A stretch of 64,000 nucleotides of DNA. It comes from Escherichia coli (GTDB taxonomy: Bacteria > Pseudomonadota > Gammaproteobacteria > Enterobacterales > Enterobacteriaceae). Positions 38,766-41,875 of this stretch are shown here, piece after piece. Numbering within the stretch: the stretch's first letter is position 1; every line of letters starts with the position of its first letter. The translations under genes and the position numbers were made by a program. The notes beneath the pieces are model-generated. The model saw nothing but the letters and a program-made list of their open reading frames with translations. It was not told the origin of the DNA and searched no databases. The DNA is taken from the NCBI RefSeq assembly GCF_003334405.1, contig NZ_QOWM01000005.1, one strand, 5' to 3'.

Positions 38766-38781
38766 TGTTAGTATTCTAACA
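38766..38781. promoter_or_regulatory. DeoR operator-like palindrome TGTTAGTATTCTAACA at the deoC-proximal promoter (O2 by my numbering)
   Basis: Near-perfect 16-bp palindrome 45 bp upstream of the deoC start; matches the DeoR operator consensus TGTTAGAA.TTCTAACA. Flanking CRP-like TGTGA/TCACA half-sites are visible in 38800-38900. Confidence 0.7.
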
Positions 38782-38979
38782 TCTACTCCGCAACACACTT
38801 CGATATACATCACAATTAAGGAAATCTACTTACAAGTTTGCATCACTGTAATGCGATCTGGTTCAAATAATTCACTTTCAAATGAATGCGTCAGTGGTGG
38901 CAAACGCATCAGGATCAAAGTGAACATCACGAAACTTCTTACAATGGCGCATCACCTTCGGCATAAAAAGGAACAGAAG

Positions 38980-40530
38980 ATGTCCACTTCTCATGAAAAT
39001 GCACTGCAACAACGTTGCCAGCAAATTGTCACCAGCCCAGTGCTTAGCCCGGAGCAGAAGCGCCATTTTCTGGCACTGGAAGCAGAAAACAATCTGCCTT
39101 ACCCACAGCTGCCTGCCGAAGCCCGCCGCGCGCTGGATGAAGGTGTAATCTGCGATATGTTTGAAGGTCATGCGCCGTACAAACCGCGCTATGTCTTACC
39201 CGATTACGCCCGTTTTCTGGCGAACGGTTCCGAATGGCTGGAGCTGGAAGGCGCGAAAGATCTTGATGACGCACTCTCTCTGCTGACCATTCTTTACCAC
39301 CACGTACCGTCGGTCACATCGATGCCGGTCTACCTGGGGCAACTGGATGCGTTGTTGCAACCGTATGTTAGAATTCTAACACAAGACGAGATCGATATTC
39401 GAATAAAACGTTTCTGGCGTTACCTCGACAGAACCCTGCCAGACGCCTTTATGCACGCCAATATCGGCCCGTCTGATTCGCCCATTACCCGTGCAATCTT
39501 ACGTGCAGACGCAGAGTTGAAGCAGGTTTCACCGAACCTGACCTTTATCTACGATCCTGAAATCACCCCTGATGACCTACTGCTGGAAGTGGCGAAGAAC
39601 ATCTGTGAATGTAGCAAACCGCACATCGCCAACGGTCCGGTGCATGATAAAATTTTCACAAAAGGGGGCTACGGGATTGTGAGCTGTTACAACTCACTGC
39701 CGCTGGCGGGTGGTGGCAGCACGCTGGTACGCCTTAACCTGAAAGCCATTGCCGAGCGCAGCGAATCGCTGGATGACTTCTTTACGCGCACTCTACCGCA
39801 CTACTGCCAGCAGCAGATCGCCATCATCGATGCGCGGTGTGAATTCCTCTATCAACAATCACACTTCTTTGAGAATAGCTTCCTGGTGAAAGAAGGGCTG
39901 ATTAACCCTGAACGTTTTGTGCCAATGTTTGGCATGTATGGGCTGGCGGAAGCGGTTAACTTGCTGTGTGAGAAAGAAGGGATTGCCGCGCGCTACGGTA
40001 AAGAAGCCGCCGCAAATGAAGTGGGTTATCGCATCAGCGCGCAACTGGCGGAGTTTGTCGCCAATACCCCCGTGAAATATGGCTGGCAAAAACGCGCCAT
40101 GTTACACGCACAGTCGGGGATCAGTTCCGATATCGGCACCACGCCGGGCGCGCGTTTACCCTATGGCGATGAGCCAGATCCGATCACCCATCTGCAAACT
40201 GTCGCCCCGCATCATGCTTATTATTATTCCGGCATCAGCGACATTCTGACGCTCGACGAAACCATCAAACGTAATCCGCAGGCGCTGGTACAGCTTTGCC
40301 TCGGTGCCTTTAAAGCCGGAATGCGTGAATTTACCGCCAATGTCAGCGGTAACGATCTGGTTCGCGTTACCGGTTATATGGTGCGTTTGTCGGATTTAGA
40401 AAAATATCGCGCCGAAGGTTCACGCACCAACACCACCTGGCTGGGCGAAGAAGCCGCACGCAACACTCGTATTCTGGAACGCCAGCCGCGCGTGATAAGC
40501 CATGAACAGCAGATGCGCTTTAGTCAGTAA
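38980..40530 (+). CDS. yjjI: Putative glycyl-radical enzyme (PFL-like), uncharacterised substrate; start at [13 protein letters not shown]..., 516 aa
   Basis: ORF track 38851..40530; good SD (aaaggaacagaag) before the ATG at 38980; C-terminal RVTGY glycyl-radical fingerprint encoded at about 40362-40376. Confidence 0.88.
39366..39381. promoter_or_regulatory. DeoR operator-like perfect palindrome TGTTAGAATTCTAACA, exactly 600 bp from the 38766 site, inside yjjI coding sequence
   Basis: Perfect 16-bp palindrome read directly; the spacing fits the known multi-operator DeoR looping arrangement as I recall it. Confidence 0.65.
39645..39660. promoter_or_regulatory. Third, weaker DeoR operator-like palindrome TGATAAAATTTTCACA, 279 bp beyond the 39366 site
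   Basis: Imperfect palindrome with operator-like half-sites; spacing fits the known upstream operator OE as I recall it. Confidence 0.45.
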
Positions 40531-41365
40531 GATTATCCCCTTCTCCTGCGTTGACGGGCCAGGCAGTCGTCTGGCTCTGTTTTTGCAGGGCTGCAATCTG
40601 CGCTGCAAAAACTGTCACAATCCGTGGACGATGGGGCGCTGTAATCATTGCGGAGAGTGCGTGCCACAGTGTCCGCATCAGGCGTTGCAGATTGTTGACG
40701 GCAAAGTGGTGTGGAACGCTGCGGTCTGCGAGCAGTGTGATACCTGCCTGAAGAGGTGTCCGCAACATGCCACGCCGATGGCGCAATCCATGAGCGTGGA
40801 CGAAGTGCTTAGCCATGTCCGCAAAGCGGTGCTGTTTATTGAAGGGATAACGGTAAGCGGCGGCGAAGCCACGACCCAACTGCCGTTTGTAGTGGCGCTG
40901 TTTACTGCTATCAAAAACGATCCGCAACTGCGCCATCTCACCTGTCTGGTGGACAGTAACGGCATGTTGAGCGAAACCGGCTGGGAAAAATTACTCCCGG
41001 TGTGTGACGGCGCAATGCTCGATCTCAAAGCATGGGGTAGCGAATGTCATCAACAATTAACCGGACGCGATAATCAGCAGATTAAGCGCAGCATCTGTTT
41101 GCTGGCAGAGCGCGGCAAGCTGGCGGAACTGCGTTTGCTGGTAATCCCTGGCCAGGTGGATTATTTGCAACACATCGAAGAACTGGCGGCGTTTATCAAG
41201 GGACTTGGCGATGTTCCGGTACGCCTGAACGCGTTTCATGCCCACGGCGTGTATGGCGAGGCGCAAAGCTGGGCGAGCGCCACGCCGGAAGACGTTGAGC
41301 CGTTGGCTGATGCATTAAAGGTGCGCGGGGTGGGCCGGTTGATATTTCCGGCGCTGTATTTGTGA
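40502..41365 (+). CDS. yjjW: Glycyl-radical enzyme activating protein (radical SAM) with two ferredoxin-type 4Fe-4S cysteine clusters, 287 aa
   Basis: Translation has the radical-SAM CxxxCxxC motif (CNLRCKNC) and two CxxCxxCxxxCP clusters ([24 protein letters not shown]); overlaps the yjjI 3' end by 29 nt. Confidence 0.9.
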
Positions 41366-41367
41366 CA

Positions 41368-41875
<508 letters not shown>

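Follow-up and report, generated by a model that had tools for sequence, protein, structure and literature searches.

The known systems that come nearest to YjjI, a glycyl-radical enzyme of Escherichia coli, are the class III (anaerobic) ribonucleotide reductase (RNR) NrdD, the pyruvate formate-lyase (PFL) PflB, and the glycyl-radical 1,2-eliminases, which include glycerol and propanediol dehydratases, CutC, HypD and IslA and of which a Cys-x-Glu motif in the cysteine loop is characteristic. Two further E. coli members now have substrates: PflD opens 1,5-anhydromannitol-6-phosphate and YbiW opens 1,5-anhydroglucitol-6-phosphate, both reactions yielding 1-deoxyfructose-6-phosphate (summarised in PMC12441222). 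YjjI is not mentioned in a 2025 list of E. coli glycyl-radical enzymes. With PflD and YbiW accounted for, YjjI seems to be the one E. coli glycyl-radical enzyme that still lacks an assigned substrate. The initial annotation of the yjjI-yjjW locus had likewise described its products as a pair lacking one, and we found no assignment in the literature, subscription journals being outside our coverage. Here we report a computational analysis of yjjI-yjjW in a 64,000-nucleotide stretch of E. coli DNA (RefSeq assembly GCF_003334405.1, contig NZ_QOWM01000005.1), hereafter referred to as the window. Coordinates of all features are collected in Table 1.

We consider it nearly certain that yjjI and yjjW, which are already catalogued as genes and which RefSeq annotates at this same stretch in other E. 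coli genomes, encode a glycyl-radical enzyme and its activase. YjjI matches the family models TIGR04040 (788.2 bits against a cut-off of 498.3; model positions 1-497 of 497) and PF11230 (732 bits; model positions 1-485 of 485). It had been annotated as a PFL-like protein with a C-terminal RVTGY glycyl-radical fingerprint. The fingerprint, an RVxG[FWY] glycine loop as found across the superfamily, is present at residues 462-466 of 516, near the C terminus but about 50 residues before the end. The likeness to PFL holds only at the level of the superfamily, and a match to the Pfam PFL-like domain PF02901 is not reported for E. coli YjjI. When YjjI was aligned with 24 relatives, down to 29% identity, the invariant residues included C236, E305, R392, R462 and G465, which bears out the expectation that the catalytic glycine and cysteine would survive careful alignment. 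Nearly invariant are R70, Y71, D75, H159, N186, K213, N218, S235, N238, H376, Q378 and D384. The cysteines of E. coli YjjI lie at positions 13, 58, 209, 211, 236, 276, 287, 330 and 440, with no CxxC pair among them. A radical S-adenosylmethionine (radical-SAM) activase gene is adjacent to yjjI in 29 of 32 clusters of YjjI sequences.

Structure prediction, which had been suggested as a check, gave a confident AlphaFold2 model from 59 sequences, with a predicted local distance difference test score (pLDDT) of 92.2 and a predicted template-modelling score (pTM) of 0.91. The predicted fold is a ten-stranded alpha/beta barrel of the kind common to RNRs, in which G465 and C236 each sit at a beta-hairpin tip, the arrangement seen in all glycyl-radical enzymes; the C236 hairpin, which is the opposing finger loop, is formed by strands 231-234 and 238-241. 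Two methods match this fold to glycyl-radical enzymes and RNRs and identify class III RNR as the nearest solved fold; one of them is Foldseek, whose independent ranking has class III RNRs in first place. At the profile level, hhalign gives a significant alignment of the YjjI profile with E. coli NrdD, at a probability of 88.7% (E 2.6e-6, 406 columns). The hhalign alignment sets the C236 region of YjjI against the C384 region of NrdD, and YjjI K304-E305-G306 against NrdD M462-E463-G464. A sequence search of YjjI against all PDB chains returned no significant match (best E 0.9, to unrelated proteins), so that YjjI is connected to known enzymes only through fold and profile methods. Similarly, an exhaustive search of 1.84 billion cluster representatives recovered only 541 relatives of YjjI, with numerous fragments among them, and reached no other family of glycyl-radical enzymes. 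The YjjI family is small and isolated at the sequence level. YjjI is the smallest member of the glycyl-radical superfamily, and its structure has yet to be solved.

The downstream gene product, YjjW, had been called a radical-SAM activase with a CxxxCxxC motif and two ferredoxin-like clusters, encoded in overlap with yjjI, and each part of this description holds. YjjW scores 398.1 bits against TIGR04041 (cut-off 250.2), with C31, C35 and C38 in place. The next-best models, all below their cut-offs, are the activases of hydroxyproline dehydratase, sulfopropanediol dehydratase and CutC, together with the PFLE_PFLC subfamily, whereas NrdG models match only the N terminus (46.8 bits against a cut-off of 126 for TIGR02491; 27 against 199 for a second model). 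Judged from these scores, YjjW groups with activases of the PflA/CutD/HypD type and not with NrdG. We also observed that the YjjW family exists in a long form of approximately 275-290 residues with two CxxCxxCxxxC motifs and a short form of approximately 236-243 residues that lacks the ferredoxin-like insert. When the window gene was compared with loci L093-L172 of our neighborhood set (described below; e.g., L140 8608-9318 and L110 9517-10233), 55 sequences had the motifs and 36 did not. With about 40% of sequences in the short form, members of this family can do without the auxiliary clusters. Two related metagenomic loci carry an additional YjjW-like radical-SAM gene, located a few genes upstream of the pair (L104 727-1440; L110 29-754), with no second glycyl-radical enzyme within view.

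Despite this clear membership in the superfamily, YjjI carries the hallmarks of none of the described classes. PflB has a Cys-Cys pair (C418-C419), whereas the corresponding loop of YjjI reads S235-C236 and the protein is far smaller; with neither an adjacent cysteine pair nor a PFL-like domain, YjjI was rejected as a PFL. Compared with PflD, YbiW and the wider 1,2-eliminases, YjjI is 250-300 residues shorter, matches neither the Pfam PFL-like nor the Gly_radical domain, and has no detectable similarity at the sequence level. The cysteine loop of the eliminases is G-C-x-E, whereas that of YjjI is S-C-Y-N: C236 is followed by Y237 and the nearly invariant N238 in place of the glutamate. For an eliminase-like mechanism, the base in YjjI would have to be E305, at a different place in the sequence, or some other residue.

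We turned to gene context, using 80 enterobacterial loci, 80 diverse metagenomic loci seeded by a non-enteric alignment, and look-ups for ten individual proteins. The first scan of a genome collection yielded Enterobacterales only, and diversity came from exact-protein look-ups and the metagenome scan. Open reading frames (ORFs) were called and clustered by all-against-all BLASTP, and the resulting families were ranked without reference to annotation before representatives were annotated with NCBIfam and PDB. YjjI sequences were clustered at 70% identity, and 27 clusters have at least three neighboring genes; metagenome loci L098, L131, L132 and L146, in which the simple ORF caller made no yjjI call, were dropped. 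Nucleoside genes occur within six genes of yjjI in 12 of the 27 clusters and include BMP-type ATP-binding cassette (ABC) importers, ribonucleoside hydrolases (Rih), ribokinase and cdd-deoACBD. One family, F2, lumps all ABC ATPases, including those of molybdate and branched-chain amino-acid systems, and was not counted as a nucleoside gene. With this generic family set aside, the neighbors ranking highest after YjjW are a BMP-family binding protein and two permeases, found in six clusters. Their solved homologs include the lipoproteins TmpC (2fqw) and BmpD (6shu), which we take to be nucleoside-binding. Next comes a RuvAB housekeeping block, and then a DeoD-type purine nucleoside phosphorylase, ribokinase and xanthine phosphoribosyltransferase (Xpt), with three clusters each. 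The RuvAB-QueA-Tgt genes downstream of yjjW belong to one Clostridia lineage, and we set them aside as housekeeping synteny with no functional link.

The nucleoside arrangements are tight, same-stranded and operon-like, and they come in at least eight different gene orders. In L140, yjjI-yjjW-cdd-deoA-deoC-deoB-deoD follows a divergent BMP-ABC unit. BMP-ABC-permease-permease-yjjI, with an 8-nucleotide overlap, is the order in L110, and yjjI-yjjW-BMP-ABC-permeases-TRZ/ATZ-type deaminase-DeoD that in L130. Hydrolase genes are present in ABC-permeases-Rih-M20-x-LacI-yjjI-yjjW-x-x-Rih (L111), ribokinase-yjjI-yjjW-x-Rih (L113) and Rih-ADP-ribosylglycohydrolase-ribokinase-purine nucleoside phosphorylase-sulfatase-yjjI-yjjW-MFS-BMP-ABC (L088), while L090 reads adenosine-deaminase fragment-PfkB kinase-yjjW-yjjI. 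The two genes marked x after yjjW in L111 (10256-11396) follow yjjI-yjjW in the same operon and encode a small membrane protein and a 222-residue protein, ahead of the ribonucleoside hydrolase; the latter protein presumably resembles DNA-alkylation-repair (AlkD-like) proteins. The same two families, neither of which matched any NCBIfam model, also occur in L112 and L116-L122, all of one low-GC clade. In the Enterobacteriaceae, deoCABD is the divergent neighbor of yjjI in all loci for which the upstream flank was recovered, as it is in Hafnia and Edwardsiella. For Haemophilus influenzae, a genome note describes a 3.1-kb region that combines the YjjI enzyme and its radical-SAM partner with a nucleoside transporter of the NupC/NupG type (PMC5609409). 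Across these contexts, a route through hydrolase and ribokinase and a route through phosphorylase and phosphopentomutase converge on pentose phosphate. Taken together, a conserved active site, pairs that often stand alone and nucleoside operons that recur point to a single shared substrate, placed at the step of nucleoside uptake or directly after it.

Based on these observations, we favor a reading in which YjjI performs an anaerobic accessory step of nucleoside catabolism. By analogy with the families of the two proteins, the [4Fe-4S] cluster bound by the CxxxCxxC motif of YjjW would cleave S-adenosylmethionine, the resulting 5'-deoxyadenosyl radical would take a hydrogen atom from G465 of YjjI, and the stored glycyl radical would pass to C236 on the opposing finger loop. 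The C236 thiyl radical would then, as elsewhere in the superfamily, abstract a hydrogen atom from the substrate and later return it. The substrate would be nucleoside-derived; the most probable candidate is the ribosyl or pentose part of a nucleoside taken up by the cell, or the corresponding pentose phosphate. E305, N238, H159, H376, D123, D150, N186, N218, Q378, D384, R70, K213 and R392 may bind the substrate and catalyze the reaction. The most likely chemistry would be a beta-elimination or a C-O (or C-N) scission beside the carbon radical, assisted by E305. The step is probably redox-neutral, the simplest interpretation for an enzyme that has one conserved cysteine and lacks a redox partner. 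The nearest solved fold is that of class III RNR, which acts on ribose and is related to YjjI at a level detectable by profiles, a further point in favor of a link to nucleosides.

Several observations weigh against this proposal. Known nucleoside catabolism needs no radical step, the reaction of YjjI is left unspecified, and, with neither the Cys-x-Glu of the eliminases nor the second cysteine of the RNRs, no motif match supports a class of chemistry. In over half of the clusters the pair stands by itself, away from any nucleoside gene; among these are three sequenced Clostridia isolates (Clostridium ganghwense, Tepidibacter hydrothermalis and Anoxybacter fermentans) and two gammaproteobacterial loci, and several of the single-protein look-ups gave no informative neighbors. 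The adjacency to deo in enterobacteria counts as one inherited event and has been lost in Proteus, which has the pair without deo, and the 70%-identity clusters are only partly independent of one another as lineages. A random gene might have such nucleoside neighbors a few percent of the time, an estimate made without a computed background. Moreover, published co-expression places yjjI with nitrate-respiration genes and not with nucleoside genes (PMC3228777). Weighing all of this, we regard a link between YjjI and nucleoside breakdown as an evenly balanced proposition. That YjjI carries out an undescribed radical reaction on the ribosyl portion of a nucleoside or a pentose phosphate, in which RNR-like hydrogen abstraction leads to elimination or ring cleavage and not to reduction, is put forward tentatively, as possible rather than probable, and a specific ribosyl elimination is doubtful.

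The co-expression result speaks for the strongest competing explanation, in which the substrate is a widespread metabolite of central or respiratory pathways, for example in anaerobic nitrate, nitrite or nitrogen metabolism, and the nucleoside neighbors of yjjI are coincidental or secondary. In the cross-species bicluster concerned, yjjI groups with narGHJI and with FNR- and NarL-like motifs, and the authors proposed a role in nitrogen metabolism (PMC3228777). One transcriptome placed yjjI under the Gene Ontology term "cellular respiration", and the many genomes that carry the pair without dedicated transporter or pathway genes are as expected for a ubiquitous endogenous substrate. Anaerobic expression, another check suggested for the pair, is documented in published data and fits a two-gene glycyl-radical system: chromatin immunoprecipitation (ChIP) and expression data identify yjjI as directly activated by FNR (PMC3688515), the HU regulon set includes both yjjI and yjjW as FNR-activated members (PMC2634741), and both are induced anaerobically in Yersinia intermedia (PMC3792023). 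Shared control by FNR explains the co-expression with nar. No nitrogen-oxide, nitrate or respiratory gene recurs beside yjjI in the 32 clusters, whereas nucleoside genes accompany it in separate lineages through three different sets of transporters and enzymes. We consider a respiratory or central substrate rather unlikely.

A second alternative retains the nucleoside context and makes the base, not the sugar, the substrate. YjjI would then carry out an oxygen-independent ring-opening or substituent removal on a purine or pyrimidine set free by hydrolases and phosphorylases, making the base available to anaerobes as a nitrogen or carbon source. Xanthine phosphoribosyltransferase is encoded upstream of the pair in one Clostridia-type lineage, and cytidine, adenosine-type and TRZ/ATZ-type deaminases are found among the neighbors. 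Base degradation as known in aerobic E. coli needs oxygen, leaving an anaerobic gap that such an enzyme could fill. The published suggestion of a role in nitrogen assimilation would also fit (PMC3228777). Nevertheless, the neighbors common to the different contexts (ribokinase, Rih, DeoB/DeoC and BMP importers) converge on the pentose and not on one base, no ring-degradation genes such as amidohydrolase cascades recur, and the nearest fold acts on ribose. A base as substrate therefore seems unlikely to us.

The same structural kinship raises the question of whether YjjI could be a pared-down anaerobic reductase of ribonucleotides (or ribonucleosides), serving as an alternative source of deoxyribose compounds. 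Identity between YjjI and NrdD is only 13-17%, and the features that define the reductase fail. The NrdD C175 position (F-N-C175-M-L) corresponds to a conserved P-R-Y-x-L-P-D in YjjI, in which C236 is the only conserved cysteine, and the partner M462 is replaced by K304. The Cys4 zinc ribbon that precedes the glycine loop of NrdD (C644, C647, C662, C665) is absent, as are the ATP-cone and specificity region, since the alignment begins at NrdD residue 120 and YjjI has 516 residues against 712. The activase is also of the PflA/CutD type, has a ferredoxin-like insert and is twice as large as NrdG, and nrdDG is already present in E. coli. We rejected the reductase assignment for YjjI, which we judge very improbable in any form.

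Finally, a few truncated YjjI variants of 402-476 residues in the protein database might indicate that the pair is a decaying or non-functional relic, but this reading is effectively refuted by regulated expression, invariant catalytic residues, and conservation: of 5426 complete E. coli genomes, 5423 carry the locus intact (at least 80% of a 3-kb query present), and dN/dS ratios of nonsynonymous to synonymous substitution are 0.04-0.13. Relative to Salmonella, Citrobacter and Kluyvera, dN/dS is 0.04-0.07 for yjjI and 0.08-0.13 for yjjW. The pair is under strong purifying selection and near-universal in E. coli.

Regulatory DNA upstream of yjjI is consistent with the FNR activation described above. 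We aligned the deoC-yjjI spacer from 13 genera and found that the conserved blocks are the DeoR operator O2, both CRP sites of deoP2 and, as the only two in the yjjI-proximal part, GGATCAAA and TACA[AC]T. Together these two would form a promoter in which an FNR-type site lies 21 nucleotides upstream of the -10 hexamer TACAAT, with a yjjI start inferred near 38952. The center of the site is about 41 bp from this start, which fits a predicted class II (-41.5) FNR promoter, and E. coli yjjI-yjjW would be switched on by FNR from it. A published FNR ChIP peak falls at approximately 38887 after coordinate conversion (PMC3688515). The candidate site, found by phylogenetic footprinting, has three mismatches, all in its left half. 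Scanning the intergenic region for the FNR consensus with at most two mismatches gave a sole match at 38800-38813, which was rejected because it is the CRP-1 site of deoP2, and a generic promoter and terminator scan returned no more matches than in shuffled sequence and missed the yjjI promoter.

The divergent yjjI promoter shares upstream DNA with deoP2, whose CRP/CytR mechanism has been described (PMC3454398). The second deoP2 CRP site lies approximately 93 bp upstream of the inferred yjjI start. Co-activation by FNR and CRP at a spacing of about -93 is known elsewhere, and the yjjI promoter may be co-activated in the same way. The motif TGTGATGTATATCGAA, listed for the yjjI/deoC intergenic region in CRP ChIP-seq of enterotoxigenic E. 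coli (ETEC), is the reverse complement of 38799-38814. Another CRP ChIP-seq motif, CGTACCGTCGGTCACA, reported "within yjjI" in ETEC H10407, is present in the window at 39303-39318, near deoP1/O1. DeoR palindrome matches number two in the window, against 0.18 expected. The perfect one, O1, lies within the yjjI coding sequence at a distance from O2 that agrees with the classical loop of 599 bp that DeoR forms from deoP1 to deoP2 (PMC3334521), which places the yjjI promoter and the first 386 coding bases inside the loop. O1 is retained with zero to two mismatches in 15 representative loci (14 genera) with an adjacent deoCABD, even where the encoded residue differs (R, K, I or G), and is absent where deo is not adjacent, in Proteus and two other gammaproteobacterial loci. 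Two of the codons it uses, AGA and CTA, are rare ones in E. coli. O1 marks deoP1, from which transcription runs antisense across the start of the yjjI gene and its promoter. Since the yjjI promoter lies inside the CRP/CytR/DeoR control region of deoCABD, yjjI is probably also modulated by nucleoside availability.

In the window, which is reversed relative to the K-12 chromosome, the gene order is deoD-deoB-deoA-deoC (-), yjjI-yjjW (+), yjjV-yjjU-osmY (-). The yjjW start is offset by +1522 in most enterobacterial loci, an identical position relative to yjjI. The yjjI start codon is preceded by an AAGGAA ribosome-binding site. An in-frame ORF at 38851-40530 (+) has 43 open codons upstream of this start, to an ATG at 38851, and the extension (38851-38979) would overlap the predicted yjjI promoter. 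We rejected this upstream ATG as the start because relatives do not share the extension and begin at the downstream ATG with its ribosome-binding site. A database entry, P0004 (574 residues, on a 2.9-kb contig), joins a YjjI domain to a DeoC/LacD aldolase domain (PF01791) and is probably an assembly or gene-calling artifact that spans the divergent deoC-yjjI junction. Downstream, the convergent yjjW/yjjV spacer (41372-41870) contains four to five tandem units of approximately 101 bp of the repetitive extragenic palindromic (REP) type, which match Rfam naRNA4 (RF02564) at 74-84 bits (matches at 41404-41785). Because of these units, the 3-kb query matches about 29 places per E. coli genome.

Table 1. 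Features of the yjjI-yjjW locus and its control region, in window coordinates
Feature	Position	Strand	Remarks
DeoR operator O2 (TGTTAGTATTCTAACA)	38766..38781	.	at deoP2; one mismatch to the palindrome
Two deoP2 CRP sites	38799-38814 and 38852-38867	.	CytR region between them; both conserved; upstream DNA shared with the divergent yjjI promoter
Predicted yjjI promoter	38905..38945	+	FNR-type 14-mer CGCATCAGGATCAA (38905-38918) with a perfect, conserved ATCAA right half-site
Conserved block GGATCAAA	38912-38919		yjjI-proximal; 13-genus alignment
Conserved block TACA[AC]T	38940-38945		-10 hexamer TACAAT in the window
yjjI coding sequence	38980..40530	+	516 residues; ATG at 38980; YjjI-family glycyl-radical enzyme, minimal 10-stranded alpha/beta barrel
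DeoR operator O1 (TGTTAGAATTCTAACA)	39366..39381	.	perfect palindrome; in yjjI codons 129-134 (Y-V-R-I-L-T); 600 bp from O2
C236 codon, V-S-C-Y-N loop	39685..39687	+	predicted thiyl-radical cysteine; sole invariant Cys among 24 relatives
E305 codon	39892..39894	+	candidate general acid/base; glutamate invariant in alignments A1 and A3
RVTGY glycyl-radical motif (R462-Y466)	40363..40377	+	G465 is the radical site; R462 and G465 invariant; hairpin between strands 460-462 and 467-469
yjjI/yjjW overlap	40502..40530	+	29 nucleotides; consistent with translational coupling
yjjW coding sequence	40502..41365	+	287 residues; radical-SAM activase for the glycyl-radical enzyme
CxxxCxxC radical-SAM cluster motif (C31-x3-C35-x2-C38)	40592..40615	+	regular-expression match on the translation
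Two ferredoxin-like CxxCxxCxxxC motifs	40640..40759	+	residues 47-57 and 76-86; auxiliary-cluster insert

What this analysis adds to the existing record is the placement of YjjI nearest to class III RNR without the hallmarks of RNRs, PFLs or eliminases, its association with nucleoside genes in multiple lineages, a promoter model, and a set of candidate substrates that gene context narrows to nucleosides, their bases, and ribose or deoxyribose phosphates. Each glycyl-radical enzyme newly assigned so far has led to new gut-relevant anaerobic chemistry, as with choline, hydroxyproline and sulfonate. If the proposed role is correct, YjjI would represent an unrecognized anaerobic branch of nucleoside catabolism common to Enterobacterales, Pasteurellaceae and Clostridia, and would be a catabolic offshoot of the lineage that gave rise to anaerobic ribonucleotide reductase. 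Should the link to ribose hold, it would also shed light on the reuse or the origin of the class III RNR barrel.

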